A stretch of DNA of 64,000 nucleotides from Candidatus Scatosoma sp. (GCA_045658805.1 JAZOVQ010000053.1:10837-74836), one strand, 5' to 3'; numbered from the stretch's first letter, positions 23,701-46,472 are shown. The notes: generated by a model from the sequence alone, not told the origin. Made by a program: numbers and translations.

Positions 23701-24978
23701 TTACATTTCTACGATACGCTTGTTTTTACGGCTTTCTTCTGCCGCATAAACGAGCAAATGGCTGTTAATCGAATCTTCCAACAAGGTGATAGACATCGAG
23801 CTCTTTTCGCCGTTTAAATAACGTACGAGATCGTGCATAATGCCGTAATCGCCGCCGCTGTGTCCACCGTACATTGCTTTGTTGACAATTTGTTTGGAAA
23901 GGTCAATCACTTCTTCTACGTAGGAAACGCTTTCGTGACGATATTGACGGTAAACAAATTTGTTTTCTTCCAATTTACCTTCAATTTCGCCTGCCGTACC
24001 TACGATATGTACGTAACGGTCGGGACGAACGGTGCTGCAAGAAAGCGTAAACGCCGCTACGCTGCCGTCCTCAAAATCCACAATCAAATTTTGTCTATCC
24101 ACTACGTCGCCGTCGCAAAGGAATGCGCATTTGCCGTAATCGTGACGGCGCAAAAAGGCTTCCTTTTCTTCTTTGGTAACTTCGTTGTAAGGTTTGTTCA
24201 TGCTATCCCAAACCAAGAAAGGCATCGTATCGTTGTTGAAATACAAATCCACCGCGTTATAACGGCAGGTTTCCTTATGAGGACAATCGAAACAGAATTC
24301 GGTTGCGTCCTTGGGTTGATTTTCCTTCACGAAGAAGCAACGGTGCCCGAAGCTGGAAACGGATTTAATTTTAGAATCCGCACGAAGCCAGCAAATAAGG
24401 TCCATATCGTGACAGCATTTTGCAAGCAAAATGGGGCTGCCGCATTCCGATTCCTTATTCCACTTCCCTCTAATATAGCTGGAAAGGTAATGAGGAACCC
24501 AAACGTGTTCGTTCATTTCCATGGAAATAATTTTGCCGAGTTTGCCTTCCGCAACCATGCTCTTTACTTGCTTGTAGAAAGGGCTGTAACGAAGCACGTG
24601 GCATACGAAAACCATACAACCGTTTTGTTTTGCCAAGCGTTCGATATCGCGCAATTCGTTTTCCTTGGAAACGATAGGCTTTTCGATAAGCATGTGATGT
24701 TTGGACGCCAAAATTTCCATTGCCGTTTGGTAATGGATTTGTTCCATCGTTGCGTTGATAACGATATCCGCTTCAACACCCGAAGCTACAAAATCAGCGT
24801 ATGCGGAAAAAAGCTGCCCGTCCGATAAAGAGTATCTTTCTTTGGCTACTTGCAATTTATAAGCGTTGGGATCAATGATCGCAACCACTTCCACTTCGTT
24901 AGGTTCATCTAAAGAATAATCCGCGTAAACTTGACCGCGGTTGCCGTAACCGACAATGGCAATTTTAATTTTTTTCAT
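23701..24978 (-). CDS. Gfo/Idh/MocA-family NAD(P)-dependent oxidoreductase (cytoplasmic, long form)
   Basis: Start trimmed to MKKIKIAIVGYGNRG (Rossmann GxGxxG) after AGAGAAGGAA. No signal peptide. It is the last gene of the ABC/surface-protein gene string. Confidence 0.85.
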   Translation of the reverse strand: MKKIKIAIVGYGNRGQVYADYSLDEPNEVEVVAIIDPNAYKLQVAKERYSLSDGQLFSAYADFVASGVEADIVINATMEQIHYQTAMEILASKHHMLIEKPIVSKENELRDIERLAKQNGCMVFVCHVLRYSPFYKQVKSMVAEGKLGKIISMEMNEHVWVPHYLSSYIRGKWNKESECGSPILLAKCCHDMDLICWLRADSKIKSVSSFGHRCFFVKENQPKDATEFCFDCPHKETCRYNAVDLYFNNDTMPFLVWDSMNKPYNEVTKEEKEAFLRRHDYGKCAFLCDGDVVDRQNLIVDFEDGSVAAFTLSCSTVRPDRYVHIVGTAGEIEGKLEENKFVYRQYRHESVSYVEEVIDLSKQIVNKAMYGGHSGGDYGIMHDLVRYLNGEKSSMSITLLEDSINSHLLVYAAEESRKNKRIVEM

Positions 24979-25098
24979 ATATATTCCTTCTCTCTTTAAC
25001 AGGTTTGGGAAAGCCGACAAGCGGCTCTCCCTCGCCTTGTCCTTTACTGCATTTGATTATCTTTTGTAATTTTTTCAAATCCACAAAATAAGTGTTGC

Positions 25099-28000
25099 TT
25101 AGTCTTCCTTCTTTTTCTTCAAAAGCGCAACTGCTGCCATACCAAGTGCCAATGCGCCGCCCGTAAGACCGGTTACCGTACCCATACAGCCAGCTTTCGT
25201 ACCGCCGTTGTTGTCGTCAGCGTTATCGTCTGCATTGTCGTCGTCAGCATTTTCGTTGTTTTCGCTATCCGTAGCTTCGTTTTCATCGTCCGAAGTGTCT
25301 TCTTCGTCGGGCATTTCGCCGCCGTTGTTTTGAGGTACTTCTTCAAGCGCGGTTTCAAACGCTTCAACTGCCGCTTCTACTTCTTCAACCGTTTCAGCTG
25401 CTTCGATAGCCGCTTTTGCCGCTGTAAACAAGTCGTTAATCAATTCAACGTTGTCTTCGCTGTAAAGATCGAAATCGATATCTCTCTTCAAATCGTTTAC
25501 AGTTTCGTTTGCCGTTTCTTTAGCTGCTGCAAGTTCTTCCGCTTCAAGTTGGTCAACCGTCTTCACTTCGTCCAAATCCGCTTTTGCCGATGCAACCAAA
25601 GCTTCTACGTCAGCTTGTGCCGTCACATTGTCAAGAGCCGCTATAAACGTTTCAATGATGCCTGCTCTAACAGCCGCTTCTTCGTCGTTGTAAACGCCGT
25701 CTGCTCTATATGCTTCTACGTCAGCAACTGCCGCCGTAATTACGTCTTCTCTCGTTACAAGTCCGTCAATAGCCGTTTTTGCCGTAGCCACTGCGTTTGC
25801 AATAGCTTCAAGGTCCGCAGCTGCTGCAACGCCAGCAACGCCAGCCGCTACAAGTTCAGCCTTTTGCGCCGCTTGTTCGTCCATGTAAACTACGTCAGCC
25901 TTGTAAGTTTCAATTTCAGCAACTGCCGCTTGCTTGTCGTTTGCAAGTTCTTCATCAGCGTATTGAGCTGCCGTCTTAAGCGCGTCGATTGCCGCTTTCG
26001 TGTTTTCGATAATTACGTCTACTTCGCTGTTGTTTGCTGCATTTGCAATTGCTTCTTGAGCCGCTGTGATAATGCTTACTCTTTCCGCTTCTTCCGCGTC
26101 ACGGAACATACCTGCTTTATAATCGTTAAGTTGGGCAGCCGCATAATCTGCATAGGTTACGTAACCGAGATCGGTCTTGTAAAGCACGATGTCTTCAGCC
26201 ACTTCATACATAATATATACGGGGTTGCCGTTGATACCAATCAAGGTCGTCATTGCTCTCGTGGGGAACAACGTACCTGCAGGAATGGTAATGCTTTGAA
26301 GTTCGTCTGCCGTAAGGAATACTTGGAATGCATAATAGCCTACGCCTTCTTCACCCAAGTTGAACAAACCATAATAGCCAACCAAGCCTTCCAAACCGTT
26401 CAACAAAATGGTTTCGCTGAACTTGTTATCGAAATAATAGTTGGGGTTTACGGCAAGCTCCGTGCCGTCGCCGTAATAATCGTCACCCTCGAAGGAGATA
26501 CCGAAATAGCCGCAAACGCCGTCGTGGCCTTGTACGTATTTAACCGATTCAATCTTTACTTGTGCAGTGGATTCGATACCGTATGCAAAACCAGATTGCG
26601 TGGTTACGTAGGAAGCGCCTGCGCGGTACACTACGTCACCCGTGTGTTGCAAGTAACCATGGCTGGGGATAAGCGCGCCTTCCATAATGGTTACGGACGT
26701 AGCCTTGGAAAGACCGTTTGCAACTGCCGCTTCCAAATTGTCCTTGCCCATCGACAAGTGCAACGTGATTATGTGGTCAGGTTCGCCTGCATCCAAATCG
26801 TATGCGTTGTCATAGAAAGCAACACAGCCAAGTTCTCTTAACGTCTTGTCACCAAATTTAACGTGATCGAAGAAGCCAAGCTTGTCAAACAATTCCGCCA
26901 AGCTGCTACCGTCGTCCGCCGTGTATGCAACATTGTCCATTCTTTCGGTCCAATCAGCATCGCCGATGGTAACGCGCAAGATCAAGTTACCCGTATTCAT
27001 GTAGAAGTCTTCAATTCTTGCGATGAATGCCGAATCTTTGGTTTCATAATATTCAGCCGCCGTCAACAAATTGTCGATACGTGCTTTTGCGTCCGCTACG
27101 ATTTCCTCAATCTTCGTTGCGTTTTCAGCCGTTGCAAGCTGTTCTTTTGCCGTTGCTACAATCGTTGCTCTTTCAGCCGCTTGTTCTTCACGGAAATAGC
27201 CTTCAGCCGATTTGTATGCATCCAATCCTTCCGAAGCAATAGCCACTGCTTCCGCTTTGGTTTGCAATCCGTCAATAGCTGCTTTTGCATCTGCAAGCTC
27301 TGCATTTACGTCCTCAATGGTCAATGCGTCCTTGATAGCAACCAAGCCTGCTTCCACCAATGCCGCGCGTTCAGCCACTTGTTCAACGAAATATTCTACT
27401 TCTGCTTTGTATGCTTCAAGTTCAGCTTTTGCAGCGTCTTTTGCCGCGCCAAGTGCCGCATTTTCTTCCGCTGCATATTCACCTTCCGTCTTCAAAAGGT
27501 TGATTTGCGCCGTTGCGTTTGCGAAGATAGAATCAATCAATTCCTGCGTGTCAGCTTCGTTCATTGCCACTTTTGCTTCCGCTACGATAGCAAGTCTTTG
27601 TGCTTCTTCCGCTTCACGGAACATGCCTGCTTTGTAAAGTTCAAGTTCCAATCCCTTTTGTTCTGCATAACCAGAGAAAGAGATAAATTCGTCGCCGACT
27701 TTATAGAATACCACGTCTTCCGTCGTTACGTACACTTCTCTCGAACCCGTCGAAAGTGCGTTGTAGGAAGGGATTTGACAGCCTGCCAAAATGGTAATTT
27801 TGGTTGCCGTTAAACCTGCGGTGGTACGGACAGCAATTGCGCCCTTGTTGCCCCATACGTTAAGGAAAGCTTCGTTGGAGGAACCAATTGCTACGTCGTT
27901 AATCAATACGTGCGTATAGAAGTTGGTGTTTACAAGGAAATCCTCAACGCTTTTAACGTCGCCGCCATAATTATCAAGCGTTTCGGGATAATCGTGCGTA

Positions 28001-29118
28001 CCAAGCTTAAAGATAGTGAAATTGTCCGCTTCGGAACCAGATACCTTTACCGAAGTGATTTCCGTAGCCGTTTCCACGTAAGGTTTCGCCCACGTACCAT
28101 CGTTTTGTTTATAGAAGGTTACGTCTTCCTGCGTTTCATACATCATGTATACGGGGTTGCCGTTTACTTCAAACAAGCTGGTCATTGCTTGTGCAGGGAA
28201 CAACGTACCTGCGGGAATGGTAATCGCTTGCGCGTCTGCTTCAGGCGTACGAATTACGAACGAGAAGTAGCCTGCGCCATCAGCACCAAGGTTGTACAAA
28301 CCATAAGGTTCAACCTTACCTGCAACGCCGTCAATCAAAATGGTGTTTGCGTAACGGTTTGCCGTGTATACGCTCGATTGATAGTTGGTTTGATTGATTT
28401 CCCTTTGTTGACCGTTGCCTGCATAGTCGTCACCCTTCAAGGAGATACCAAAATATGCATTGCCATACGTAGCGTCCCAGCTGGTTACGTAATCCATCGC
28501 TTCTACTTCCGTTTTACCTACGGACATAATACCGTACGCTACGTCCGAATTCGTCGCAACGAAATCGCAACCTGCGCGGTATACGGTTGCCGTCGTATCG
28601 CCTTGCAAATAAGCATGGCTAGGGATAAGCGCGCCTTCTTTAACCGTCAAGCAGGTATTTGCACTAATGCCTGCAGCCGTTGCAGCCGCCATATTTTCGC
28701 TACCCATTGCAAGGGGAATCGTAATCGTATAATCGGGCTCGCCAGAGTTTAACCAATAAATGTTATCGTAACAAGCCGTGCACCCCCATTCCGCCAAGGT
28801 CTTTCCGCCGATTTCAATGTGGTTAAAGAAATCCAAGCCTCTAAGTGCGCCAGCCAAGTCCCCCGCACCTGCGTAAGACTGTTGACTTTCGCCCGTCCAG
28901 TCGCATTCGCCAAGCGTCAAACGGATTTCAAAGTTACCGTTGCCGTGCCAACCTGCTACACGTCCGAGCATTGCAATATTTTTCGTAGAATAGCTTACTT
29001 CTTCCGCATTTACAGTTACGGTGTTGTCAGGAGCGGAAGTTGCACACGCCGTTGCGCCTGCGCCAACGCCTACAACTGCGCACAAACCCGCTAAAAATAA
29101 TTTATTAAACTTTCTCAT
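25099..29118 (-). CDS. 1339-aa cell-surface protein: lipobox signal, duplicated unknown-module region, Ala/Glu helical repeat modules, acidic tail, C-terminal Cys + TM + KKKK anchor
   Basis: N-terminus MRKFNKLFLAGLCAVVGVGAGATAC. Residues about 35-480 and about 700-990 are paralogous, for example GALIPSHAYL / GALIPSHGYL and ITIPAGTLFPAQAM...NGNPVYMMYE / ITIPAGTLFPTRAM...NGNPVYIMYE. FIVAR-like helical units such as AKAAIDGLQTKAE and TKAAIDALKTAAQ. C-terminus ...DDNADDNNGGTKAGCMGTVTGLTGGALALGMAAVALLKKKKED. Confidence 0.8.
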   Translation of the reverse strand: MRKFNKLFLAGLCAVVGVGAGATACATSAPDNTVTVNAEEVSYSTKNIAMLGRVAGWHGNGNFEIRLTLGECDWTGESQQSYAGAGDLAGALRGLDFFNHIEIGGKTLAEWGCTACYDNIYWLNSGEPDYTITIPLAMGSENMAAATAAGISANTCLTVKEGALIPSHAYLQGDTTATVYRAGCDFVATNSDVAYGIMSVGKTEVEAMDYVTSWDATYGNAYFGISLKGDDYAGNGQQREINQTNYQSSVYTANRYANTILIDGVAGKVEPYGLYNLGADGAGYFSFVIRTPEADAQAITIPAGTLFPAQAMTSLFEVNGNPVYMMYETQEDVTFYKQNDGTWAKPYVETATEITSVKVSGSEADNFTIFKLGTHDYPETLDNYGGDVKSVEDFLVNTNFYTHVLINDVAIGSSNEAFLNVWGNKGAIAVRTTAGLTATKITILAGCQIPSYNALSTGSREVYVTTEDVVFYKVGDEFISFSGYAEQKGLELELYKAGMFREAEEAQRLAIVAEAKVAMNEADTQELIDSIFANATAQINLLKTEGEYAAEENAALGAAKDAAKAELEAYKAEVEYFVEQVAERAALVEAGLVAIKDALTIEDVNAELADAKAAIDGLQTKAEAVAIASEGLDAYKSAEGYFREEQAAERATIVATAKEQLATAENATKIEEIVADAKARIDNLLTAAEYYETKDSAFIARIEDFYMNTGNLILRVTIGDADWTERMDNVAYTADDGSSLAELFDKLGFFDHVKFGDKTLRELGCVAFYDNAYDLDAGEPDHIITLHLSMGKDNLEAAVANGLSKATSVTIMEGALIPSHGYLQHTGDVVYRAGASYVTTQSGFAYGIESTAQVKIESVKYVQGHDGVCGYFGISFEGDDYYGDGTELAVNPNYYFDNKFSETILLNGLEGLVGYYGLFNLGEEGVGYYAFQVFLTADELQSITIPAGTLFPTRAMTTLIGINGNPVYIMYEVAEDIVLYKTDLGYVTYADYAAAQLNDYKAGMFRDAEEAERVSIITAAQEAIANAANNSEVDVIIENTKAAIDALKTAAQYADEELANDKQAAVAEIETYKADVVYMDEQAAQKAELVAAGVAGVAAAADLEAIANAVATAKTAIDGLVTREDVITAAVADVEAYRADGVYNDEEAAVRAGIIETFIAALDNVTAQADVEALVASAKADLDEVKTVDQLEAEELAAAKETANETVNDLKRDIDFDLYSEDNVELINDLFTAAKAAIEAAETVEEVEAAVEAFETALEEVPQNNGGEMPDEEDTSDDENEATDSENNENADDDNADDNADDNNGGTKAGCMGTVTGLTGGALALGMAAVALLKKKKED

Positions 29119-29163
29119 TGTTTATTTCCTAATCCTTATTTTTATTATTCAGCAACGTATTGC

Positions 29164-30927
29164 TTATTTTTTAGGCCAAACGCCTTCGCCCGTTTCCGCC
29201 AAGGAAGCGTTGACAAGCGTACCATTTGCTTGCAAGCCCGTGAATACTTCTTTCATTTGATCGGTATCACCGATAAACAATGCATAGGAATATTCAAGAG
29301 GTACAAAGTCGATCATTTTACGTTGAATACCAGGGTTGATATAGCTGTAATTGATGGTCGAATAGCTAGGAACCAACTGCGATTCGTCAAACGAGAAATA
29401 ACCCGTGTGATATTTACGGTTGGTTTCTTCTTGGAAGTAGCTAGTAGATTTACGTCCGCGCGATGCGATATATCTATCTGCATTGGGCAAACAAATACCT
29501 ACACCCCACTTGTTTTCGTTTACAAACGCGCACCAGCCGCCGTTTACCATTTTACCTTTGATACCGTAATAATATTCAGAGCCAACAACCTGCGTTTTGC
29601 TTTCTTTAATTTCGCATCTACCGTTTTGTTCGCCTACTTCTTTATCGAAGATAACCCCTTGCTTGGTTTCGCAATAGAAATAATTTAAGGGATATGCGAA
29701 ATAGGTTGCGGGCGTTTCCTGCATGGATACGGATACGCCGTCTACCCCCGTGAATTGCGAGAAATCGGTGTACAAGTTGTCTACCATCAAAGCGCCGCTT
29801 TCATCGAAGTAATAGGTTACTTCCATATAGCCGTTAGCTTGAATGTTGGTGTAGAAGAACCATTCCTGCCCTTTCATCTTTACGTAAAGCTTGTCGCTTG
29901 CGTATTCATAATCGATGATTTGAGGGGTATGACCGCCGAAGTCGCCGCACTGAATGGGGTTGTAGATAGGCTTGCCCGTTTCCGTGATACCTTGATAATA
30001 CGAATCCTTATCTTCGGGATCATAATCGGGCAAGTAGCCGTTTTCGTCACTAACGTTCAAATAATAGGAAGGTTGTACTTCACGGCCAAGGTCGTAAATG
30101 TTAACCAAGTTTACGCAATCGCTGCCTACCTGCGATACGAAATCGGGATCGACGTCACGGTCAATACAAATGTTACCATCGCTGTCCATATATTCGTATA
30201 CGTCGTCTTCCAACTTTTCAAGGTAGGTGATACAGCCGCCGTAATAAGGCGAGGTACCAACTCTCGACGAGCCGTCGCTTACGTACCATTCTTCCACCGT
30301 GTTCAAGGTACGATCGGAAATGCTTGCCGAATTGAACTTGAACGTACCCGTTTTGGTCGAGTCTACGTTTTGGAAAGAAATGGATACAAGCGTCTTTTCA
30401 TATGCGCCTTGCGCACCGATACGGAATGCGTCCAAGAAGGTCTTAAATTCCGTTTCGCCTGCCGCAATGAAGAACTTTTCCGAGTTGGTTACGCTGGGAT
30501 CTTCGTTGCTTTCATAATTGATATAGCCAACCAAGTCTACGTCCGTTTCAATATCCAGCTTCAAGTAATTTTTATTTTTCAAATTACTGCTGATTTCATA
30601 GGTCACGCAACCATTTGCTTGAGGATTTTCGGGTTCATATTGCGCAAGCGTTTTTTCCGTGCCGTCGGAGAACACTTTGGTAAACTTATAATTTTCCAAG
30701 GTGTAAGGCGCGGAACTTACGCCGTCAAACAAGGGGTTTCCCAAAGGCGAAACCTCGTCTTTGGGGAGTTCCTCGTTGGTAATATTGTTGTTACCCGAAT
30801 TGTTATTACCCGTCGAATTGTTATTGCCGGTGCCGTCGCCCGTCGTGTCGCCGCAAGCGGCCATGGATACAGACAACAAGCCTGCAAGCAATAAGCAACT
30901 TACTTTTTTAAAAATTTCTTTTTTCAT
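29164..30927 (-). CDS. 587-aa lipoprotein of unknown family
   Basis: MKKEIFKKVSCLLLAGLLSVSMAAC|GDTTG lipobox, then an Asn-rich linker (GNNNSTGNNNSGNNN). No catalytic motif recognised. Only 1 nt separates it from the upstream gene stop. Confidence 0.75.
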   Translation of the reverse strand: MKKEIFKKVSCLLLAGLLSVSMAACGDTTGDGTGNNNSTGNNNSGNNNITNEELPKDEVSPLGNPLFDGVSSAPYTLENYKFTKVFSDGTEKTLAQYEPENPQANGCVTYEISSNLKNKNYLKLDIETDVDLVGYINYESNEDPSVTNSEKFFIAAGETEFKTFLDAFRIGAQGAYEKTLVSISFQNVDSTKTGTFKFNSASISDRTLNTVEEWYVSDGSSRVGTSPYYGGCITYLEKLEDDVYEYMDSDGNICIDRDVDPDFVSQVGSDCVNLVNIYDLGREVQPSYYLNVSDENGYLPDYDPEDKDSYYQGITETGKPIYNPIQCGDFGGHTPQIIDYEYASDKLYVKMKGQEWFFYTNIQANGYMEVTYYFDESGALMVDNLYTDFSQFTGVDGVSVSMQETPATYFAYPLNYFYCETKQGVIFDKEVGEQNGRCEIKESKTQVVGSEYYYGIKGKMVNGGWCAFVNENKWGVGICLPNADRYIASRGRKSTSYFQEETNRKYHTGYFSFDESQLVPSYSTINYSYINPGIQRKMIDFVPLEYSYALFIGDTDQMKEVFTGLQANGTLVNASLAETGEGVWPKK

Positions 30928-30928
30928 G

Positions 30929-37190: not shown

Positions 37191-37231
37191 CTGTACGCTT
37201 TAAAGGCGGCAATCGCCTTTAAAGCGTACAG
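37191..37231 (-). promoter_or_regulatory. Perfect 18-bp intercistronic stem-loop between the solute-binding protein and permease genes
   Basis: CTGTACGCTTTAAAGGCG (37191-37208), 5-nt loop, CGCCTTTAAAGCGTACAG (37214-37231). On the coding (minus) strand it is followed by an A-run, not a U-run, so it is not a canonical terminator. Confidence 0.7.
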
Positions 37232-37243
37232 AACTGCTATCTA

Positions 37244-39034
37244 TTACAAGTTGTAGTTAGGATCCTTCCAGAAGTTTTCAGGCCACTTGTTGGAAGCAAC
37301 GAACGTCAACATATCAAAGTCAACAGCTTCCGACCACTTCACTGCAAACGTTTCAGGAATCAATACTTGGCTGTCGGAAAGACCAGTCATCAAAAGGTTA
37401 CGCCAGCATTCGGTAATGCAGCCTCTCGTCTTTTCCAAACCGTTTACGTATCTAACGCCCCAGGTAAGGAAGGGGTTAGCGTCAACGTCGCCGTTGAAGG
37501 AAATGGTTTCGTTGCTTGCTTCGAAGTATGCTTTCCATTCTGCAGGGATAACAACGAGGTTGTTCTTAACCGAGGACAAGCCCTTAGGTACGTCGTTGTT
37601 TGCGGCCAAGCCCTTGTAGTAAATGGTTTGACCATAAGGCGACATAACGAACTTAATGAAGTCTTTGTTCAATTCGTTTTGTTCAGCATCGCCCAAGTGA
37701 TTGATAATGGAAAGGAAACCGCCGTTACCACCGATGTCACGGGTAATCGTCGTATCAGGAACGATCTTTTCACCCACTTTGTCACCAGAGGTGTACGTAC
37801 CAGAAATCATTTGAGGATAATCGAAGTAACCAACGTCGAAGCCAGTAGCGTTCGATTTTTCATAATTGATACCGAAGCCTTGATAATCCAAAATGATTTG
37901 AGGGGAAGCTTTACCGTCGCTTTGCGTTTCGAACTTATCGCGAAGCTCGCCAAATTCGGTGCTGGAAACGTCCTTCATCAAAACGCCCTTCATCTTTGCA
38001 AGCTGACTTACGAAATCACGATATACTTCGCTGGTGAAACCAACGTAGCCAGGGCCGAAGGAACAATCTTCTTCAAAGAGAATGTTCAACATCTTTGCAT
38101 AACGGGGACCGTAACCGCTGTTAAGTTCAACAACGTCTTCCGTTTCGTCATAGTTAGCCCAAACGCTGTTCTTGTCGCCGCCCATGATGTATTGATAGAA
38201 TTGACGATAGTAATAGTCGCCATATACACGAAGCAACCAGCTGAATTGCAAGGATTCTACACTTGCAGCCGTAAGGGAGATACCCAAAGGATTGCTGTAG
38301 TCTGCTGCTTGCATTGCTTTAGAAAGTGCGATAAGGTCGTCCCAGGTTTCAGGATAGCCAACTTCGCCGGAAGCGTTCGTGTAACCCTTTGCGCCTGCTT
38401 CTTCCAAAGCAACTTCGTTTACGAACCAGCACGTTTGCATGATTTCGGAGTTCAAAATGATACTCTTGCCGCTGGTATCAGCTTCTTTGGTGGTGTAAGC
38501 TGCTTTTTCAAGTACGCTGGACCATTGAACGTTTTCACCACAGTAAGGGTTGTAGGACGCAATTGCCGAGTACATATCGATACAGTAGGAATACGTAGAG
38601 GTGTAACCAAGGTTACCTTCAACGATATCCCAATCGGTGTTGGGGTTAACCAATTCCGAGTTCAAGTTTTGGGAATACGAAGAACCTGCATATTGGGTGT
38701 TGATGTTTACTTGAACAGCGCCACCTTGCAATCTTTCATATTCATCTTTCAACGCGCGCCAGCCGCTTTGCGTACCTTCAAAGTCCAAGCAAACGTCAAC
38801 TTTACCAGAATATTGCTTGATCGAAGAAACGTCAGGCAAATAATCTGCGTTGAAGCCTGCGCCAAGGTCGTTAACAGACAAAGGCTGCGTCGAGATCATG
38901 TTGCTGTTGCCCGTGCTGCCGCTGCTGTCTTGCGAGTTGCCACCCGAGCTTGCGCTGCTGCCGCTGTCGCACGCCGCCAATACCGTCGTGCAAGAAAGAG
39001 CAAGAGCCAAGAACATAGTTAATTTCTTTTTCAT
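37244..39034 (-). CDS. Extracellular solute-binding lipoprotein (ABC, family-1 sugar type, long form)
   Basis: Start trimmed to the ATG at 39034 (AAGGAGGAATTT upstream), giving MKKKLTMFLALALSCTTVLAAC|DSGSS with a lipobox. First gene of the permease operon. About 596 aa mature, longer than typical 420-450 aa sugar SBPs. Confidence 0.85.
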   Translation of the reverse strand: MKKKLTMFLALALSCTTVLAACDSGSSASSGGNSQDSSGSTGNSNMISTQPLSVNDLGAGFNADYLPDVSSIKQYSGKVDVCLDFEGTQSGWRALKDEYERLQGGAVQVNINTQYAGSSYSQNLNSELVNPNTDWDIVEGNLGYTSTYSYCIDMYSAIASYNPYCGENVQWSSVLEKAAYTTKEADTSGKSIILNSEIMQTCWFVNEVALEEAGAKGYTNASGEVGYPETWDDLIALSKAMQAADYSNPLGISLTAASVESLQFSWLLRVYGDYYYRQFYQYIMGGDKNSVWANYDETEDVVELNSGYGPRYAKMLNILFEEDCSFGPGYVGFTSEVYRDFVSQLAKMKGVLMKDVSSTEFGELRDKFETQSDGKASPQIILDYQGFGINYEKSNATGFDVGYFDYPQMISGTYTSGDKVGEKIVPDTTITRDIGGNGGFLSIINHLGDAEQNELNKDFIKFVMSPYGQTIYYKGLAANNDVPKGLSSVKNNLVVIPAEWKAYFEASNETISFNGDVDANPFLTWGVRYVNGLEKTRGCITECWRNLLMTGLSDSQVLIPETFAVKWSEAVDFDMLTFVASNKWPENFWKDPNYNL

Positions 39035-39179
39035 AAATTCCTCCTTGTGCATGCAAAGGTTCGCTTTGCATACTCTTTGTTTTTTTCTTTTTATATACCC
39101 CCGCCATACGCCCGCATTTGGCAAAATGTACACGTAGCGCATACGCGTACGCACGACAAGAATATAATACCTTGCATTT

Positions 39180-39208
39180 ATTATACAACAAATCTTCTAT
39201 TTTGTCAA
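39180..39208 (-). promoter_or_regulatory. Consensus SigA promoter for the ABC/surface-protein operon
   Basis: Minus strand TTGACA (39208-39203), 17 nt, TATAAT (39185-39180). The leader is about 140 nt. Confidence 0.6.
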
Positions 39209-39331
39209 TACGAAATCTTATCCCCTTTGTCACATTTTTTGCCATAATTACCCCTCATTGGCACTATTTTCACAATTTTTGTCATGTTTTATTAAAAATA
39301 TCATATTTCTTGCAGTTTTTTACAATATATA

Positions 39332-39359
39332 TTGACATTTTAATTTTTTATGTTACAAT
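39332..39359 (+). promoter_or_regulatory. Promoter of the AraC-type regulator (predicts a leaderless mRNA)
   Basis: TTGACA (39332-39337), 16 nt, TACAAT (39354-39359). The ATG is at 39366, 7 nt after the -10, and there is no Shine-Dalgarno. Confidence 0.55.
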
Positions 39360-39365
39360 AAAGCC

Positions 39366-40175
39366 ATGGAACAGACAAAACAGTATTCAAACGAAAATCC
39401 TTTATACGAGCATCTTGCGGACAATCCCTTTTATTTGTTCTTAAAGAAAGAGAGTTTTTTCTTTCACATTCCGCATTATCACGAAAGCCTGGAATTTGTG
39501 TATATGCTTAAAGGCAGCACTACGGTGCATTTGGGCAGCGAAACGTACACCTTGACAAAAGGCGACGCTTTTTTATGCAATTCGCAACAGGTGCATTTTT
39601 ACGAAAACCAAGACCCCGACAAGATCGGTATCGTTGTGGTTTTAAGCAATAAATACACGCATAATTTCCGTGAACTGTGCAAAAATGCCACTCTCCCTTC
39701 TTTCCTCACCGATAAGAAGGCGAACGTGGAACTTTGTACGCTGCTTCAAAATTGGTTGGACTACAAGGATAGAACTTTCCTCACCGATTGCGCTTTTGCC
39801 AATTTGTTGCTCGATAAGCTGATTAAGCTGTACGGGTTTGTGGACGCGGACGAGGTGGATACCTTAAACACCACCGCCATCGCGTTTATCAATTATATCC
39901 AAGAAAATTATCATTTGGATCTTTCCTTGGAAACCGCTGCCGAGCATTTTGGATATTCCAAAGAATATTTCTCTAAAAAATTTAAACAAATTGTGGGAAA
40001 AAATTTCCTCTCCCTTTTGAACAGTATTCGATTGCAAAAGGCCGTTGAGTTACTCAACGATCCCGATAAAAAATACACCTTTAACGAGGTATGCGCAAAA
40101 TGCGGTTTTAACAATTCCGCTTCCTTGTATCGACATTTGAAAAAGGTCAAGCAAGCCAACCCTCGTCTCCAATAA
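39366..40175 (+). CDS. AraC-family transcriptional regulator (cupin sensor + HTH)
   Basis: 269 aa. N-terminal cupin (FHIPHYHESLEFVYMLKG) and C-terminal AraC HTH (FGYSKEYFSKKFKQIVGKNF...CGFNNSASLYRHLKK). Only plus-strand gene, divergent from the ABC operon. Confidence 0.9.
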   Translation: MEQTKQYSNENPLYEHLADNPFYLFLKKESFFFHIPHYHESLEFVYMLKGSTTVHLGSETYTLTKGDAFLCNSQQVHFYENQDPDKIGIVVVLSNKYTHNFRELCKNATLPSFLTDKKANVELCTLLQNWLDYKDRTFLTDCAFANLLLDKLIKLYGFVDADEVDTLNTTAIAFINYIQENYHLDLSLETAAEHFGYSKEYFSKKFKQIVGKNFLSLLNSIRLQKAVELLNDPDKKYTFNEVCAKCGFNNSASLYRHLKKVKQANPRLQ

Positions 40176-40186
40176 ACCACGAAAAA

Positions 40187-40216
40187 AGCAACCCGCAAAG
40201 GTTGCTCTTTTTTTCT
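40187..40216 (+). terminator. Rho-independent terminator after the AraC gene (possibly bidirectional)
   Basis: Stem AGCAACC / GGTTGCT (40187-40193 / 40200-40206), then CTTTTTTT. An A-run on the other side would serve the convergent minus-strand transcript. Confidence 0.75.
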
Positions 40217-40285
40217 CCTCGTAAATAAAATGCTCGAAAAAAATTAGCGTGACGCTCGGTTAAGAGCATCACGCTATTGTTTTTG

Positions 40286-40411
40286 TTACTGACCGAAATT
40301 TTCAGGGAATTCGGGCATATCCGTGGTATTGTCGTTCAACGAAGTGCGAACGATATCTTCGGTAGAGAAGAAAACCAATTCCAATTCAACATTTTCATAC
40401 ATTTTTTTCAT
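40286..40411 (-). CDS. Unannotated 41-codon ORF immediately downstream of the 1964-aa gene
   Basis: Below the ORF-track size cutoff. The stop of the giant gene (TAA 40427-40425) is embedded in TAAGGAGG, and the ATG follows 8 nt later at 40411. Translation: MKKMYENVELELVFFSTEDIVRTSLNDNTTDMPEFPENFGQ (acidic, no Cys, no signal peptide). Confidence 0.5.
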   Translation of the reverse strand: MKKMYENVELELVFFSTEDIVRTSLNDNTTDMPEFPENFGQ

Positions 40412-40424
40412 TTGATTTTCCTCC

Positions 40425-43400
40425 TTAACCCACGCAAATTACCGCTTGACCAGGTTGCAACGTAACGCTACCGGAAACCACTTGATAAGGTTGTTCCGCC
40501 GTACCTACGCCGTAGCCGATAAGATAGCATACGCTACCCGAAGCCGTTACCGAAGGCGTTGCCTTCAAATCACACGTATCCGCGTTGGTGTACATCGTGA
40601 TCGTCTTCGAGCCGTTGGAAAGCGTCGTCGTTAACAATTCTTTACTGCTGTTATAATCTCTCGTCTTCAACTTGTAACCATTGAAGATGCTTTGAATTAC
40701 TTCAAATTGCGATGCCGCCTTTTGCGCCGCATTGTAATAGGAATAGCCCGACGTTGCATTGTTACCGATGCCGTTACCATAACCGTTACCATCGAAGCCA
40801 ACCATGGAAGCCGCCAATTCGGTTACAATGGGGAAGTAACAGAACCAAGAATAGCCTGCTACGTTATGCGCAGCTGCGTACAACATAGCCATATACAAAT
40901 CTTGTTCCGTCAACTTACCTTCCGTACCCTTGTTTTGCGTATGCGCAGTAATTGCTTGATAGAATTTAATATCGCCGCTTACAACAGCGTTCGTACCGTT
41001 GCCGTACAATTCTTCAAACGTCGACTTATATCTATCCGTGCTGTCACCCATTGCGTGACTGGTATAGATGTCAACGTAGAGATAATCAAGCTCGGTATAC
41101 TTCAACCAGTTGGTAAGATAATCGTTATAATTCCAAATGGTCGAGAAGCCTACGTTCTTTTGATACAAACATGCAAGGAAGAAAGGTTCGTTGCCGTTTG
41201 CCTTGGAAAGACCAAGTTCAGCGCAAGCCGCTTTCAACGCCTTAACCGTATACCCTACGTTTTGAACTTCGTTTCTTTCAGGTTCGTCTTTAAGCGAGAA
41301 ACCGTAGAATGCAGGATGTTGTACATATTCAGCAAAACCCGCGCGCGATTTAATTACGTTTGCAACCTGCGATTGAGAGCTTGCTTCCTTGGACAATTGA
41401 TAGAACGCTTCGTCACAAACGATTACCTTCATACCAAGCGTCCAAGCGGTATCCATAACGTATTTCAAACGGCTAGTATGCCATACGTCGTCCGTTTCAA
41501 AAGAAGCAATACTGCCTTCGTTAATCAAAAGGATATTGTTGCCCATTGCCTTCAATCTCGCTGCGTGCGCAGGGAGTTCATCAGGAGAAGTCCAATCGGT
41601 TGCATTTGCTTCGTTAGGCGACCAACCCGTGTCCTTGTTATAATATACGAAATATTCGTCATCCGAAGTCAAGATAGTACCCTGGTCGTCAATGTAATAA
41701 TTGCCAGACGTGGAAATACCAAGCGTCTTCATTTGCGATTCGGTGAACTTGTACAAGCCGCTGTACATTGCCTTATAGCTGAATACAGGCTTCACTTCTA
41801 CCGTTGCAAAGCTTGCGCTGGTTGCAGAAGTCTTAAATTCGTCATAATAGGAATATGCCGTAACCGTTACGTTGTGTTGACCTACAACTTCCGTCGTGTA
41901 GGAAAGTTCTTCGTCAGCCATTACGATAACGCCGTCACGATAATCGTTGTCGTCTTTTACAAGGTAATAATCGGCATTTTCTACCGCTTCCCAGGTTACG
42001 TAGTAACCCATACCTTGCGATACAACGGGCGTTGCAAGCTTCGTGTTACCAACGTTGTTGCCAAGCTCGTCACTCGTCTTGATCGTTTCAAGAATTGCTA
42101 CGCAATCTGCAAGAGTGCCAAGGTCGCCGTCCAAAATACCGTTCATTGCTTCCTCAACAACCTCTTCTACCTTTGCTTTATGCAAATCGGTATAAACGTC
42201 GCTGTTAAGATAGTTTTTCAAGAACGCAGAGTAGTATTTAAGGGTTTCGTTTTCGTCATAATCGGAAAGCATGAACGAAATGCTCAAGCCGTTCGTGGTC
42301 ATTCTATAACCGCTTACAACGTATACGCTATTACCGATAACTACGCTGGAATTGTAACCTGCAACGATACGGAAACCATTGATAACCAACGCTTCTACCG
42401 AACCGCTTTCTACCGTAATGGTTACTACCGAGCCGTTTTTCGTAATTGCCAATTGATAATTGCCCACTTTATCCGCAGTTTGACTTACGTTCAAGTCTTC
42501 GTCGATCGTAATATCAGCAACGCTGTTTACGTAATCGATAACCGATTCAGGTCTTTCGTTTGCTTTATAAGCCAACGTTGCAACTTCGTAAACGCTTCTT
42601 GCGTTTTCAGCAGGGTTATACGGCGTATAAACGTAACCCGTTTCGCCGTTGGAATAGTTAAGTTTCAAATAGCCTCTTGCCGACATAGAACGCGCGTATT
42701 GCGCAGGACTAATATTTACAAGCGCCGCTACGTACGTCCACGTGTCGCCCGATTGCGAGCTCCACGTGCTAGTAGGTACGTCTACAAAATAGCCAGCAGG
42801 GAAGGTTGTATGTACAAAATCAATATCACCGCTGAGATAATTGGTGGGAACGATAAGCGTACCTGCGCCTGCAATTAAGCCGTTGTTTACACCATAGGTG
42901 TATGCGTTGCCGTCAACGTCCACAAGGAAACGAAGACCGCTCTTGCCCGTAGCTCTTACAGCTGCACCATCGCGCATCTTAAAGCCAATCCATACGGGAT
43001 ACAACGTCGTATCCCCCGTCAACGTATATTCGTAACCAGCAGGATACAAATCGGGAACGGTGTTGATATCCGTCGTCCAACCTGCAAATACGTTGCCCGT
43101 TTGTCCATAAGTGTATGCATCCAATTCGGGAAGTGCGTACTTCCAAGCCGTTTCAGTGCTAAGCACTTCGCTGCCGTCATGAAGGGTAAGGGTATGTCTT
43201 TCTTCCCCTTCCGTCATACCAGGATCGCTGATACGAATACCGTTTGCAACCTGCGACGTGGTCGTAAATACCAATCTATTCGCATAAGGAGCATAGTCCA
43301 TGTACGTACCAGCAAGCGTATACGTTCTCTTCGTGAAATTACCGTCGATATCAGCATATACTTCTACCGTACCGTTGGACGCATCGATAAGCTTATAACC

Positions 43401-46319
43401 AAGCGTTACGCGATAAGTTACACCCTTTTCGAGACCCGTGCCGTTGTCATTGTATTCAAATGCGTCGATGTTACCATCGTTTTCGCCGGTATTGTAAGCA
43501 CTGGGGTGGCTGAAGAATTGAACACACTTATTGGTAGAGCCCGGACGATAGAGGTATATTCTCCAGCCGAAGCAATAGGACGAGTTTTGACCGTGGGTAG
43601 ACGTTACGACGTTCAACGTCGTATATTCACCTTGCGCGGAAACGTCGTTAGAACCAAGGTTCAAGGACATATCAAAAGTAATAGAGAAAGAATCCGACGT
43701 ATTATAACCATAGAAGTTGGTCGCTTGGTCTACGTAGAGATAACCCTTTTCAAATGCCGCCGAGAGCGGATATCCCGTGTTGTACAAATCGGACAAAACA
43801 TAATTATTTTCGTACGAGGGCATCGTAGCGTTGCCCAAATCGCCCTGTCTTACCCATACGCCGTTTTCATTGAGGAAGGTTACGTCCTCTTCCACTACGA
43901 AACAGGTCTTGTTGTTTGCATCTTCACGATATGCGTTGGTAGGGATTTGTGCGCCCTTCTTAATTACCACTTTGTTTGCAGGCGCCGCCGTACCAGCGGG
44001 CAAATAGCTTGCAAACGAACCAATTCTAGTCCAAATGTTGAGATATGCGTCACCGCCTGCCGCAGGTGCCGCGCTTACTCTCTTACCGTCAATTTCAACA
44101 AAATTGAAGAAGTGTACACTGCTTACTCTGTCTTGTACCTTAATGGTATCGCCGTTGGGATAATCGTGGTTGGTCAAATGCACGATCAAGAAGCCTTCAG
44201 AATATTCAAGCTTAGAAATATTCGTTTCGGTTTCCGTGAAATCGTGCGCCGTATATACAGCGTTTACAACGATGTCGTCACCCGTAAGCGTGTAGCTTTC
44301 CCATACCGCTTTATAGCCGTCTTTTTCAGGAACTGCAGGAATTTCACCGTCCATACCGTTCGATTTGGTATACGTACGGGTTGCAACGGTTGCGCCGTCC
44401 GCAACGAAAGTGATTTTACCTTGTTTTTCCCAGTTTGCTTCCACGTTATCGCTCATACGGATAAAGGTCACTTCTTCCGTCGTTACGTAGAAAACTTGCG
44501 TGCCGTTTTTCGCGTATGCCAACGAAGGGAATTGCGCGCCTGCACGGATTACAATCTTATTTGCCGTTCTTGCTTCGCCGGGAATATGTACGGCAAAGTT
44601 GTGACCAACGAATTTGTTGATCCACATCCAGTCTTCACTCGCTCTCGATGCGCCGTAATTGTTATACATCGAACGAAGCGTGAAACCGTCTACGATAATG
44701 TTATCAAAAAGGTTAAGCGCCAACACTTTTTCAGCGGAAACACCGATATTGTAGGTACTTGCGTTGTTGTCGTTGGGCGCGGGATAGTCGCTGTTGCTCA
44801 AGTTTACGTTGATAACGTTGCTCGATCTACCGTATTGAAGCAAGGTAACTTCGGTATCGAAATCCCCTTCAGGAATGTATTTTTCCCAAACGCCTTGATC
44901 GTTTTTAACGAAGGTAACGTCCTCTTTGGTTTCGTACACTTCTCTATCGCCCGTCACAAGCGCATTGTACGTAGGAAGTTGACAGCCTGCCAAAACGGTA
45001 ATTTTGGTCGCGTTGTTGTCGCCGGGACGGAAGGTGAAATAACCATAGTTACCCCATACGTTCAAGAACGCTTCGCCAGGCATTGCCAAAGGTTGATCGT
45101 CAATCAATACGTGCGAAAGGAAGTTTTCGCTTTGCGCGTAATATTTAGCCGATTGTGCGCCGCCTGCATAGGTATTGGGAGCGGAGCTGTAATTGCTGCC
45201 TGCAATTGCAATACCGGCAAACGCGTCGCCGCTGTCACCGAACATTCTAACGTCCGAAACGTCCGCTGCAATGGTTACAAGAGGCTTTTGCCACGAACCG
45301 TCCGGTTGTTTATAGAACGTTACGTCCGTTTTCGTTTCATAGAACATGTAAACGGGGTTGCCGTTGAACGCGAACATGTTGTTCATTGCATACGAAGGGA
45401 AATACGTACCTGCAGGAATGAAGATTTCTTCGCTTTCTTCTTCCATTGCGCGGATTACGAAAGAGTAGAACCCTTTACCCTTGGTGCCGAGGTTGAACAA
45501 ACCGTAAGCTTCCGTTTTAGAAGCTACGCCATCTACCAAAATCTTGCTTGCGTAATGGTTGCCCATAAATTCGGACGATTGATATTGCGCTCTGTTGAAT
45601 TCCGTTTGGTCGCTAATTGCCGCATAGTCGTCACCCTTCAAGGATACGCCGAGGTATGAGTTGCCGTACGTAGCGTCCCAACCGGTTACGTAATCGATTG
45701 CTTGCACGTCCGTTTTACCAATGATTTTGATGCCGTAAGCAACGCCCGACGACGCCATGGTATAATCACAGCCAGCGCGATAAACGGTTGCCGTTTTATC
45801 CCCCATCAAATAACCATAGCTGGGGATTATCGCGCCTTCCAAAATGGTCGCAAACGTGCCGCCGCCGATACCCGCCGCCGACGCCGCCGTCATGTTATCT
45901 CTACCCATGGAAAGGTGCAACGTAATCATGTAGCTCGGTTCTTGATTATTCAAGTCTACGCCGTTGTCGTAGCAGGTGGTACAACCCCATTCTGCCAACG
46001 TCTTATCACCAAGCTTAATGTGATTAAAGAAATCCATGTTTCTAAGCACCCAAGGCATATCGTGTTCGCCTTGATAGGTAATGGTGCCCTTTTGCGAGCC
46101 CCAATCCGCTTCACCAAGCGTAATGTTCATGGTGAAGTTACCGTTGCCGTACCAGCCAGCAACACGCGCGCCCATTGCCACGTCTTTCGTCGTGTACGTT
46201 TCAGCCGCTTGCGCTGTCGTGATTGCGCCAGGTCCAGAGAACACGATGCCGAAGCAAAGCGCGATGCTCATTACCAAGCCCATCAACACGGTAAGTACTG
46301 TTTTTCTTACTCTTGTCAT
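40425..46319 (-). CDS. 1964-aa secreted multidomain protein: 5 copies of the unknown module, 2 flg_new repeats, beta-sandwich domains, FN3-like domain, C-terminal TIM-barrel glycosidase-like region
   Basis: Signal peptide MTRVRKTVLTVLMGLVMSIALCFGIVFSGPGAITTAQA|AE. The N-terminal about 430 aa are paralogous to the 1339-aa protein (VAGWYGNGNF...LGEADW, DFFNHIKLGDKTLAEWGCTTCYDN, NGNPVYMFYE). flg_new signatures DGYKAVWESYTLTGDDIVVNAVYT and FAGWTTDINTVPDLYPAGYEYTLTGDTTLYPVW. The C-terminal region has FYGFSLKDEPE and GNEPFFLACLY strands, only weakly clan GH-A-like. Confidence 0.85.
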   Translation of the reverse strand: MTRVRKTVLTVLMGLVMSIALCFGIVFSGPGAITTAQAAETYTTKDVAMGARVAGWYGNGNFTMNITLGEADWGSQKGTITYQGEHDMPWVLRNMDFFNHIKLGDKTLAEWGCTTCYDNGVDLNNQEPSYMITLHLSMGRDNMTAASAAGIGGGTFATILEGAIIPSYGYLMGDKTATVYRAGCDYTMASSGVAYGIKIIGKTDVQAIDYVTGWDATYGNSYLGVSLKGDDYAAISDQTEFNRAQYQSSEFMGNHYASKILVDGVASKTEAYGLFNLGTKGKGFYSFVIRAMEEESEEIFIPAGTYFPSYAMNNMFAFNGNPVYMFYETKTDVTFYKQPDGSWQKPLVTIAADVSDVRMFGDSGDAFAGIAIAGSNYSSAPNTYAGGAQSAKYYAQSENFLSHVLIDDQPLAMPGEAFLNVWGNYGYFTFRPGDNNATKITVLAGCQLPTYNALVTGDREVYETKEDVTFVKNDQGVWEKYIPEGDFDTEVTLLQYGRSSNVINVNLSNSDYPAPNDNNASTYNIGVSAEKVLALNLFDNIIVDGFTLRSMYNNYGASRASEDWMWINKFVGHNFAVHIPGEARTANKIVIRAGAQFPSLAYAKNGTQVFYVTTEEVTFIRMSDNVEANWEKQGKITFVADGATVATRTYTKSNGMDGEIPAVPEKDGYKAVWESYTLTGDDIVVNAVYTAHDFTETETNISKLEYSEGFLIVHLTNHDYPNGDTIKVQDRVSSVHFFNFVEIDGKRVSAAPAAGGDAYLNIWTRIGSFASYLPAGTAAPANKVVIKKGAQIPTNAYREDANNKTCFVVEEDVTFLNENGVWVRQGDLGNATMPSYENNYVLSDLYNTGYPLSAAFEKGYLYVDQATNFYGYNTSDSFSITFDMSLNLGSNDVSAQGEYTTLNVVTSTHGQNSSYCFGWRIYLYRPGSTNKCVQFFSHPSAYNTGENDGNIDAFEYNDNGTGLEKGVTYRVTLGYKLIDASNGTVEVYADIDGNFTKRTYTLAGTYMDYAPYANRLVFTTTSQVANGIRISDPGMTEGEERHTLTLHDGSEVLSTETAWKYALPELDAYTYGQTGNVFAGWTTDINTVPDLYPAGYEYTLTGDTTLYPVWIGFKMRDGAAVRATGKSGLRFLVDVDGNAYTYGVNNGLIAGAGTLIVPTNYLSGDIDFVHTTFPAGYFVDVPTSTWSSQSGDTWTYVAALVNISPAQYARSMSARGYLKLNYSNGETGYVYTPYNPAENARSVYEVATLAYKANERPESVIDYVNSVADITIDEDLNVSQTADKVGNYQLAITKNGSVVTITVESGSVEALVINGFRIVAGYNSSVVIGNSVYVVSGYRMTTNGLSISFMLSDYDENETLKYYSAFLKNYLNSDVYTDLHKAKVEEVVEEAMNGILDGDLGTLADCVAILETIKTSDELGNNVGNTKLATPVVSQGMGYYVTWEAVENADYYLVKDDNDYRDGVIVMADEELSYTTEVVGQHNVTVTAYSYYDEFKTSATSASFATVEVKPVFSYKAMYSGLYKFTESQMKTLGISTSGNYYIDDQGTILTSDDEYFVYYNKDTGWSPNEANATDWTSPDELPAHAARLKAMGNNILLINEGSIASFETDDVWHTSRLKYVMDTAWTLGMKVIVCDEAFYQLSKEASSQSQVANVIKSRAGFAEYVQHPAFYGFSLKDEPERNEVQNVGYTVKALKAACAELGLSKANGNEPFFLACLYQKNVGFSTIWNYNDYLTNWLKYTELDYLYVDIYTSHAMGDSTDRYKSTFEELYGNGTNAVVSGDIKFYQAITAHTQNKGTEGKLTEQDLYMAMLYAAAHNVAGYSWFCYFPIVTELAASMVGFDGNGYGNGIGNNATSGYSYYNAAQKAASQFEVIQSIFNGYKLKTRDYNSSKELLTTTLSNGSKTITMYTNADTCDLKATPSVTASGSVCYLIGYGVGTAEQPYQVVSGSVTLQPGQAVICVG

Positions 46320-46443
46320 GTTATCCTCCTATAGATTCTACTTTGACTTTTTGTTCAAATTTTTGCAATTGGCCGATAAAACTCCGTCTGCAGCGCAACG
46401 AAAAACGTCTTATCAGCCCTGACTTATTATTAAGTCCTAATAA

Positions 46444-46472
46444 ATTTTATCAAAAAAAGAAAAACCTGTCAA
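46444..46472 (-). promoter_or_regulatory. Promoter of the 1964-aa gene
   Basis: Minus strand TTGACA (46472-46467), 17 nt, TAAAAT (46449-46444). The leader is about 118 nt. Confidence 0.55.

Follow-up and report, generated by a model that had tools for sequence, protein, structure and literature searches.

The 64,000-nucleotide stretch of Candidatus Scatosoma sp. DNA that we analyzed (GCA_045658805.1, JAZOVQ010000053.1:10837-74836; the window) carries, at positions 23701 to 46472, a locus that is probably a Gram-positive polysaccharide-utilization-type cassette of an uncultured lineage of gut Clostridia made up of Ca. Scatosoma and its relatives. This reading draws on the gene content, the co-conservation of the genes, the importer type of the permeases, the predicted folds and the lack of family assignment. 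The cassette is not a new category of system, and no extracellular part of it belongs to a described family. Christensenellales-like uncultured Clostridia are widespread in the guts of ruminants, horses, chickens and humans and, little is known of how they feed. A set of about eight genes that extends over about 30 species and includes at least four large unannotated families, one of them with hundreds of members across bacteria, is a well-delimited lead for the discovery of carbohydrate-active enzymes and transporters in an uncultured gut lineage.

An earlier annotation of this DNA (the original prediction) had proposed a polysaccharide utilization architecture; the regulator, the sugar-type importer and the surface proteins that it named are present, their order is conserved, and a listing of open reading frames (ORFs) recovered all nine ORFs at the coordinates it had given. 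The genes form three transcription units, namely a seven-gene string, the AraC gene, and a gene for a secreted giant of 1964 amino acids (aa) together with a 41-codon ORF. The features are as follows.

37244 to 39034, minus strand: 596-aa lipoprotein, candidate solute-binding protein, lipobox LAAC; first gene of the cassette in every case
34554 to 37163, minus strand: 869-aa ATP-binding cassette (ABC) permease; first transmembrane segment 22-40, ectodomain 41-546 (about 505 aa), then the BPD_transp_1 core
33641 to 34552, minus strand: 303-aa MalG/UgpE/GlcU-like ABC permease (Pfam, NCBIfam)
30929 to 33625, minus strand: 898-aa lipoprotein, lipobox ATAC; one Flg_new repeat (50-121), then about 770 aa without a family
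29164 to 30927, minus strand: 587-aa lipoprotein, lipobox MAAC; predicted jelly-roll (about 80-205) and beta-super-sandwich (about 210-587)
25099 to 29118, minus strand: 1339-aa surface protein; signal peptide, N-module 42-473, spacer, N-module 687-981, spacer, acidic tract, C-terminal anchor
23701 to 24978, minus strand: cytoplasmic Gfo/Idh/MocA oxidoreductase, 425 aa from ATG 24978; the ORF extends to 25020
39180 to 39208, minus strand: promoter of the seven-gene string, TTGACA-17-TATAAT, 12/12 consensus (promoter scan)
39332 to 39359, plus strand: promoter of the AraC gene, 11/12 with TG
39366 to 40175, plus strand: AraC-family regulator, cupin sensor domain and HTH_18 (Pfam, NCBIfam), divergent from the string
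40425 to 46319, minus strand: 1964-aa secreted giant; signal peptide, N-module 38-480, related beta-rich repeats 480-830
44880 to 46208, minus strand: the giant's N-module, about 440 aa, 53% identical to that of the 1339-aa protein
40665 to 41789, minus strand: the giant's predicted glycoside hydrolase (GH)-like (β/α)8 barrel (AlphaFold2 model, Foldseek, strand map)
46444 to 46472, minus strand: the giant's own promoter, 11/12, extended -10; 46472 belongs to its -35
40286 to 40411, minus strand: 41-codon ORF, 13 nt downstream of the giant; acidic, without signal peptide
40245 to 40276, minus strand: intrinsic terminator, 13-bp stem and T-run, closing the unit of giant and small ORF

Read from its promoter, the string encodes the binding-protein candidate, the long permease, the MalG-like permease, the 898-aa, 587-aa and 1339-aa proteins and the oxidoreductase. 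The co-conservation of these genes was assessed by scanning species-representative genomes with a profile of the 587-aa lipoprotein, which gave 69 loci, and then comparing the proteins of the window with those loci by tblastn. The loci come from metagenome-assembled genomes (MAGs) labelled Ca. Scatosoma, other Clostridia, 'Bacilli'/Erysipelotrichaceae or Oscillospiraceae, from ruminants, horse, chicken and human. About 30 loci, of which three lack the 898-aa gene, have the genes in the order binding protein, long permease, permease, 898-aa and 587-aa lipoprotein. At the level of species, the cassette is conserved in about 30 genomes, with identities of 30-83%, and the surface protein, the oxidoreductase and the divergent AraC gene are present in most of these loci. 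Among the 68 flanking ORFs surveyed in relatives, the commonest gene encodes a GH38 α-mannosidase (six copies spread over five loci, immediately behind the oxidoreductase gene); no GH38 gene lies in the window. A GH78-like gene follows the 587-aa gene in three loci of a distant branch, one of which also has GH95, and genes for GH106, GH35 and lacto-N-biose phosphorylase each occur once or twice. This variation among the accessory hydrolases agrees with a conserved core for capture and import that has been adapted to different glycans, and the GH38 genes linked in the Scatosoma branch point to mannose-containing glycans.

In the distant branch, a conserved protein of about 670-825 aa without a Pfam match is encoded directly upstream of the binding-protein gene (L028:3-2117, L031:23-2032, L033:1812-4577, L035:963-3437 and L036:208-1959). 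It adds a further family without annotation to those associated with the cassette.

The type of the importer is given by its two permeases. Both contain BPD_transp_1, and their best NCBIfam matches are GlcU, UgpE and MalG. The orthologues of the 869-aa permease give scattered sub-threshold Pfam matches, several of them to six-bladed beta-propeller families, which is a hint, taken from sequence, that the large ectodomain may be a beta-propeller. The binding-protein gene starts at ATG 39034 behind GGAGG, giving a product of 596 aa (589 aa in orthologues), and this start replaces the GTG at 39154 (636 codons) that had been assigned before. Its product matches SBP_bac_1 with an E-value of 0.0035 and 17.8 bits, below the cut-off of 26, and a profile of 18 orthologues finds only matches at E of about 0.9 to sugar-binding proteins of the PDB; neither sequence nor profile searches of the PDB gave a significant relative. 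The original prediction had noted the lack of an ABC ATPase gene. There is none in the whole 64-kb window, where tblastn with the MalK-type ATPases of relatives found nothing and no LSGGQ signature occurs. This absence is ordinary. Firmicutes CUT1 systems normally share an MsmX/MalK ATPase encoded elsewhere, and the ATPase of this importer is presumably a shared one of that kind; a MalK-type ATPase gene adjoins the cassette in four relatives (L027, L029, L030 and L032).

Lipoboxes, signal peptides and transmembrane topology place five proteins of the locus outside the cell. Four of them, the surface proteins of 587, 898, 1339 and 1964 aa, total 4,788 residues, and for these Pfam and NCBIfam gave nothing beyond the single Flg_new repeat of the 898-aa protein, while searches of the PDB with single sequences and family profiles found no match. 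Scanning 22 giants and 21 orthologues of the 898-aa protein member by member with Pfam added only a small Gp6_2nd β-domain, Flg_new and five marginal DUF4434 matches. The prediction that these proteins would belong to no known CAZy or adhesin family was thus borne out by Pfam, NCBIfam and the PDB, apart from the Flg_new repeat. The statement that about 4,800 codons of surface protein are functionally dark is true of sequence families and too strong for structure, because two of the proteins have predicted carbohydrate-active folds. These two families, with their candidate catalytic residues, are targets in the search for new GH families and new specificities.

The first of the two is the giant. 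It has about 106 homologues, all from uncultured Clostridia MAGs and all named 'hypothetical'. After residue 830 it contains Flg_new-like repeats among further domains, an FN3-like domain (1425-1510), the (β/α)8 barrel (1511-1885) and a C-terminal beta-sandwich. An AlphaFold2 model of residues 1425-1964 reached a predicted local distance difference test score (pLDDT) of 85.3, and Foldseek found 283 matches to it at E<=1e-3. The top matches listed were all GH or related carbohydrate-active (β/α)8 enzymes, bar one uncharacterized exported protein, and included GH13, GH39, GH30, PslG, GH51, BT_1012 and GH35. What had been described as a weak TIM-barrel-like region is accordingly a confidently predicted (β/α)8 barrel with GH-type structural neighbors. 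According to the strand map of the invariant residues, D1678-E1679-P1680 ends β4, which is the acid/base position of clan GH-A; D1750, Y1752 and H1755 follow β6, and W1825 lies on β8. After strand β7 (KFYQAI) the sequence continues T-A-H-T-Q-N, free of acidic residues, which puts H1793-T1794-Q1795 at the GH-A nucleophile position, and the T-Q is kept in a relative of 27% identity (P0235).

Whereas a word-indexed homology search with the C-terminus of the giant returned only nine matches, an exhaustive profile search revealed the extent of the barrel family, which comprises 595 clusters at E<=1e-3 and still 273 when the threshold is set to E<=1e-10. Stand-alone proteins, about 450-520 aa long, are numerous among the members, and one of these adjoins GH78 and AraC genes. 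Across 72 sampled remote members, with an identity of about 20%, neither D-E-P nor the β6 Tyr varies; Pfam assigns to these 72 sequences two marginal GH42 and two marginal DUF4434 matches and NCBIfam none, and the names in public sources are all 'hypothetical'. We regard this as an undescribed family of GH-like proteins, large in size, whose putative active site is conserved and whose catalytic arrangement is predicted to be non-classical. It resembles clan GH-A (GH39, GH30, GH42, GH51 and Pfam DUF4434) in its predicted (β/α)8 fold with a C-terminal β-sandwich, in the acidic x-E-P that ends β4, in Tyr/His after β6 and Trp on β8, and in the few marginal GH42 and DUF4434 matches; it differs in having H-T-Q for the nucleophile Glu at β7 and D-E-P for N-E-P, and in reaching no Pfam threshold.

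The 587-aa lipoprotein is the second candidate. Its 144 homologues are again all 'hypothetical' proteins of uncultured Clostridia MAGs, and an AlphaFold2 model built from a 38-sequence alignment had a pLDDT of 87.6. Foldseek placed GH174 endo-α-1,3-fucanases first (8jd7_A, E 3.5e-7, probability 1.00, TM-scores 0.34/0.38), with LacZ domain 5 and galactose mutarotases next. About 58 positions of the family are invariant, a good many of which are polar, and the invariant acids are D279, E283 and E404. The C-terminal domain is homologous to an unannotated family of Planctomycetota, Verrucomicrobiota and others (hhalign 99.9%, E 3e-33), with which it has the motifs DLGREIQQSYY, WNPVQAGD and ELPAVY in common. 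A sequence bridge to GH174 through these Planctomycete and Verrucomicrobial relatives failed, although they are true homologues: neither the profile of the lipoprotein nor that of the distant relatives (A1, A3) found anything at E<=10 among all PDB chains, 8jd7 and 9k1g included, and on the distant relatives Pfam recognizes only appended LamG domains, with no model for the shared domain. Membership in GH174 therefore does not follow from these searches. The characterized GH174 fucanases (Fun174A, Fun174Sb; 8jd7, 9k1g) are likewise secreted β-sandwich proteins, and Planctomycetota members occur on both sides, as some of GH174 and as relatives of the lipoprotein's C-terminal domain; the substrates of GH174, however, are marine sulfated fucans, whereas the present lineage lives in animal guts. 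The residues reported as critical in GH174 are D119, E120 and E218 (PMC11943901). From its predicted fold, we consider the 587-aa lipoprotein a candidate glycan-active enzyme or glycan binder.

In two Planctomycetota loci (L051:9743-14449 and L055:9683-14230) the same type of β-sandwich is fused to long Gly/Thr/Ser-rich repeat regions and a C-terminal hydrophobic segment, and in a third (L063:9935-12019) to LamG; these fusions fit a secreted glycan-active role of the family. A solitary paralogue of the 587-aa protein (about 520-590 aa, 38-44% identity) is encoded in MAGs that carry the cassette as well (L037-L045 and L077; for example L037:9767-11383). It has no transporter context and an uninformative neighborhood, and in L077 it stands beside a short-chain dehydrogenase/reductase gene.

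All 21 orthologues of the 898-aa lipoprotein carry Flg_new and nothing else, and hhalign comparisons of this protein with the 587-aa lipoprotein and the giants matched only in the signal peptides, showing no relation to those dark proteins. The 1339-aa protein and the giant are paralogous in the N-module, which occurs one to four times in many relatives; the second N-module of the 1339-aa protein is a partial copy, and its two spacers are alanine/glutamate-rich and predicted to be helical. It is not a lipoprotein; its orthologues carry signals of the signal-peptidase-I type and, at the C-terminus, a conserved anchor. The tail (25099-25200) reads GC.G[ST]V.GL, a transmembrane helix and KKKKED, and in orthologues P0069-P0093 G-C-x-G-[ST]-[VL]-x-G-[LF], about 17 hydrophobic residues and KKK(K)E[DN]. 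No LPXTG motif is found in the protein or its orthologues and no NCBIfam CTERM model matches the tail, which, with its conserved Cys, looks like a sorting or anchoring signal.

The last gene of the string encodes the Gfo/Idh/MocA oxidoreductase, in which Pfam recognizes GFO_IDH_MocA and its C-terminal domains. It probably starts at ATG 24978, which gives 425 aa compared with 424 aa in L004. Its best PDB match is 8qc2 (E 1.6e-17, residues 5-214 only), a GH188 NAD+-dependent sulfoquinovosidase (PMC10755693), with which it has the Rossmann domain and the motifs EKP, EH and KCCHxxDL in common. Sugar 3-dehydrogenases are among the other PDB matches listed, which include glucuronide-3-dehydrogenase, 1,5-anhydrofructose reductase and DgpA; a fold shared with NAD-dependent glycosidases and 3-keto-glycoside-type enzymes had been predicted, and the matches agree with it. 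Sulfonate binding in GH188 depends on R166 and K172 (PMC11465081). Where 8qc2 has EHRFPFLHK the protein of the window has EHVWVPHYLSS, in which R166 is replaced by V and K172 by S, and because of these replacements we reject its identity as a sulfoquinovosidase and the use of sulfoquinovose. It also differs from GH188 in that only its N-terminal half aligns and in an inserted Cys4 motif in the C-terminal domain (C229-x2-C232-x5-C238...C284), invariant in 20 orthologues together with C121, C126, C179 and C188-C189. The Cys4 motif has a marginal WhiB match in Pfam and may be a Zn or Fe-S site.

It is a serious possibility, falling a little short of probable, that this enzyme simply acts as a dehydrogenase of a sugar or of inositol, passing an imported monosaccharide on to central metabolism, and is neither an NAD-dependent glycosidase nor an enzyme of a 3-keto-glycoside pathway. 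The short GH188 alignment and the missing sulfonate residues are consistent with such a role, as are NCBIfam matches to UDP-GlcNAc 3-dehydrogenase, IolG and levoglucosan dehydrogenase that are just as weak and fall well short of their cut-offs, and the lack of a linked sugar-phosphate-isomerase-type lyase gene in the string. It is opposed by the nearest solved relative, which is a glycosidase with the same three motifs, and by the position of the gene as the conserved last member of a glycan cassette that has otherwise no cytoplasmic glycosidase in this genome.

Taken together as a polysaccharide-utilization-type cassette, the parts would work as follows, although it should be kept in mind that we infer catalysis, complex formation and substrate from the observations described above. 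The AraC-type sensor would turn on the single promoter of the string, which would drive a CUT1-type importer composed of the lipoprotein binding protein and two permeases and energized by a shared MalK/MsmX-type ATPase from elsewhere. The importer would be co-expressed with two surface lipoproteins and the tail-anchored stalk protein, and these surface proteins, along with the separately transcribed 1964-aa secreted enzyme, would capture and cut an extracellular glycan. The (β/α)8 barrel of the giant would be the likeliest depolymerase and the 587-aa lipoprotein the next candidate, either as an enzyme or as a binder of glycan; for the 898-aa lipoprotein, the N-modules and the ectodomain of the permease, the likeliest role would be to bind substrate or hand it over. 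The cytoplasmic finishing of oligosaccharides would fall to the NAD-dependent Gfo/Idh/MocA enzyme and, in relatives, also to GH38, GH78-like and GH95 enzymes.

A Gram-positive polysaccharide utilization locus (gpPUL) is defined by a carbohydrate transport system, a transcriptional regulator and at least one polysaccharide-degrading enzyme (PMC5320581). The transport system and the regulator are both present here. Like the gpPULs of Roseburia and Eubacterium rectale (Sheridan et al. 2016, PMC5320581), the locus combines an AraC-type regulator, an ABC sugar importer and large secreted or anchored multi-domain proteins, and the ATPase is absent from it, as is often the case in gpPULs. Unlike them, it includes a pair of dedicated lipoproteins and a permease whose ectodomain measures about 505 aa, neither of which is part of gpPULs as described, and it has no CAZy-type Pfam match, whereas gpPULs have been recognized by their CAZy enzymes and carbohydrate-binding modules. 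The Sus-like loci of Bacteroidota similarly encode surface lipoproteins and a surface endo-enzyme with a transporter and a sensor-regulator, but the present lineage has no outer membrane and an ABC importer takes the place of SusC/SusD; no locus protein matched SusD or a TonB-dependent receptor in Pfam.

Several results weigh against the cassette reading. The binding protein is identified mainly by its position, its SBP_bac_1 match being sub-threshold and without a PDB relative to back it. As to the enzyme that the gpPUL definition calls for, sequence comparison (Pfam, NCBIfam) assigns no protein of the locus to a CAZy-type family, and what the locus offers is two proteins with GH-like predicted folds. 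Even these resemble solved structures only at a distance, with TM-scores to any solved GH of only 0.3-0.5; for the 587-aa lipoprotein and GH174 the TM-score is 0.34-0.40, with a root-mean-square deviation of 8.6-9.2 Å and 10-12% identity. Because H-T-Q replaces the β7 nucleophile Glu, the model of the barrel does not support classical retaining hydrolysis, and the domain could be non-catalytic. The giant adjoins the operon in only about eight of about 20 assessable loci (four upstream, four downstream), and in MAG RGIG3912 it lies on another contig among housekeeping genes with the operon elsewhere; the expected co-conservation therefore holds for the seven-gene string in about 30 genomes and only in part for the giant. 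Finally, because the accessory hydrolases differ between branches, no single substrate follows from them.

Consecutive Asp-Glu at the end of β4 without a β7 nucleophile is the arrangement of GH20, GH123 and related substrate-assisted enzymes. This suggests a more specific version of the cassette reading, in which the barrel would be of the substrate-assisted N-acetylhexosaminidase or endo-N-acetylglucosaminidase type and the cassette would harvest glycans containing N-acetylhexosamine and mannose (N-glycans and the like, from host, plants or fungi), with GH38 trimming the imported mannosides. We consider it unlikely. The invariance of D1678-E1679 and the fact that in the Scatosoma branch no gene is linked more often than GH38 agree with it, but GH18, GH20, GH84, GH85 and GH123 are not among the top 50 Foldseek matches, the window lacks GH38, in other branches the linked genes are GH78-like and GH95, and the nearly invariant D1750 on β6 could be a second catalytic residue.

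An improbable elaboration of the cassette reading sees in the locus a so far unrecognized Gram-positive counterpart of the 'utilisome' of Bacteroidota, in which the permease ectodomain, possibly a β-propeller, would dock the two lipoproteins and the binding protein, and this stable complex would capture, cut and import the glycan. It would bring at least four families new to CAZy (the D-E-P barrel with its 595 clusters, the 587-aa β-sandwich, the 898-aa lipoprotein and the N-module) and a barrel mechanism without a β7 nucleophile. The complex of the lipoproteins with the ectodomain is speculation; a large-ectodomain permease with tightly coupled lipoproteins could show how membrane glycan capture is organized in Gram-positive bacteria.

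It is just as doubtful that the large proteins serve in adhesion or in the architecture of the cell surface (stalks, as proposed, whose distal binding modules attach to host, feed particles or other microbes), with a lectin-like, non-catalytic barrel and β-sandwich and an importer co-located for an unrelated small molecule: the N-modules in one to four copies with long helical spacers between them, the C-terminal membrane anchor, the missing β7 nucleophile, the Flg_new repeats typical of surface proteins, a BspA/collagen-type giant 7 kb away and the lack of a GH family match would suit such a role, but they are set against the strict order, 1-nt gaps and co-conservation with sugar-type permeases over about 30 genomes, the recurrence of GH38, GH78, GH95 and MalK genes beside the cassette, the invariant D-E-P, Tyr and Asp of the barrel family, which resemble an active site, and its many stand-alone members, which are not adhesin-like.

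The transcriptional layout of the cassette agrees in most points with what had been predicted. The promoter of the string is a perfect consensus, and the AraC gene upstream is divergent and has a promoter of its own. With corrected starts, the gaps in the string are 80, 1, 15, 1, 45 and 120 nt; the range of 1-80 nt originally given holds if the oxidoreductase starts at TTG 25020, which makes the last gap (after the 1339-aa gene) 78 nt, and does not hold with ATG 24978. Terminator-like sites inside the string are no better than in shuffled sequence. The 5' leader of about 140 nt between the operon promoter and the start codon of the binding protein contains a GC-rich hairpin at 39048-39075 (gtgcatgcaaaggttcgctttgcatac). 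Just upstream of the operon -35 there is a 19-nt direct repeat at 39227-39245 and 39267-39285 (TTGTCACATTTTTTGCCAT / TTTTCACAATTTTTGTCAT), the copies lying 40 nt apart. We do not claim it as an AraC-type operator because its core is not kept in the equivalent regions of 11 relatives, and it may be due to chance.

The flanks of the locus are chromosomal housekeeping genes (P-type ATPase, pseudouridine synthase, tRNA methyltransferase, PriA, LigA and PcrA), and the base composition is uniform; given this uniformity and no mobility genes, an origin as a mobile element was rejected. The neighboring giant mentioned above is a 1759-aa surface protein (53782-59061, minus strand) that is unrelated to the locus and consists of collagen triple-helix repeats, DUF4988, eight BspA-type LRR_5 (leucine-rich repeat) blocks and three Flg_new repeats.

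As had been expected, the giant of the cassette forms a separate transcription unit with the 41-codon ORF; it has its own promoter, and the terminator lies behind the ORF. The small ORF is kept in L001-3, L009 and L023 at 62-68% identity (for example L001:15908-16030), with the consensus MKKxYENxxxxxxFFxxEDIVxTSxNDNxxxMPEFPExF, and it accompanies the giant even in genomes in which the giant is unlinked from the operon.

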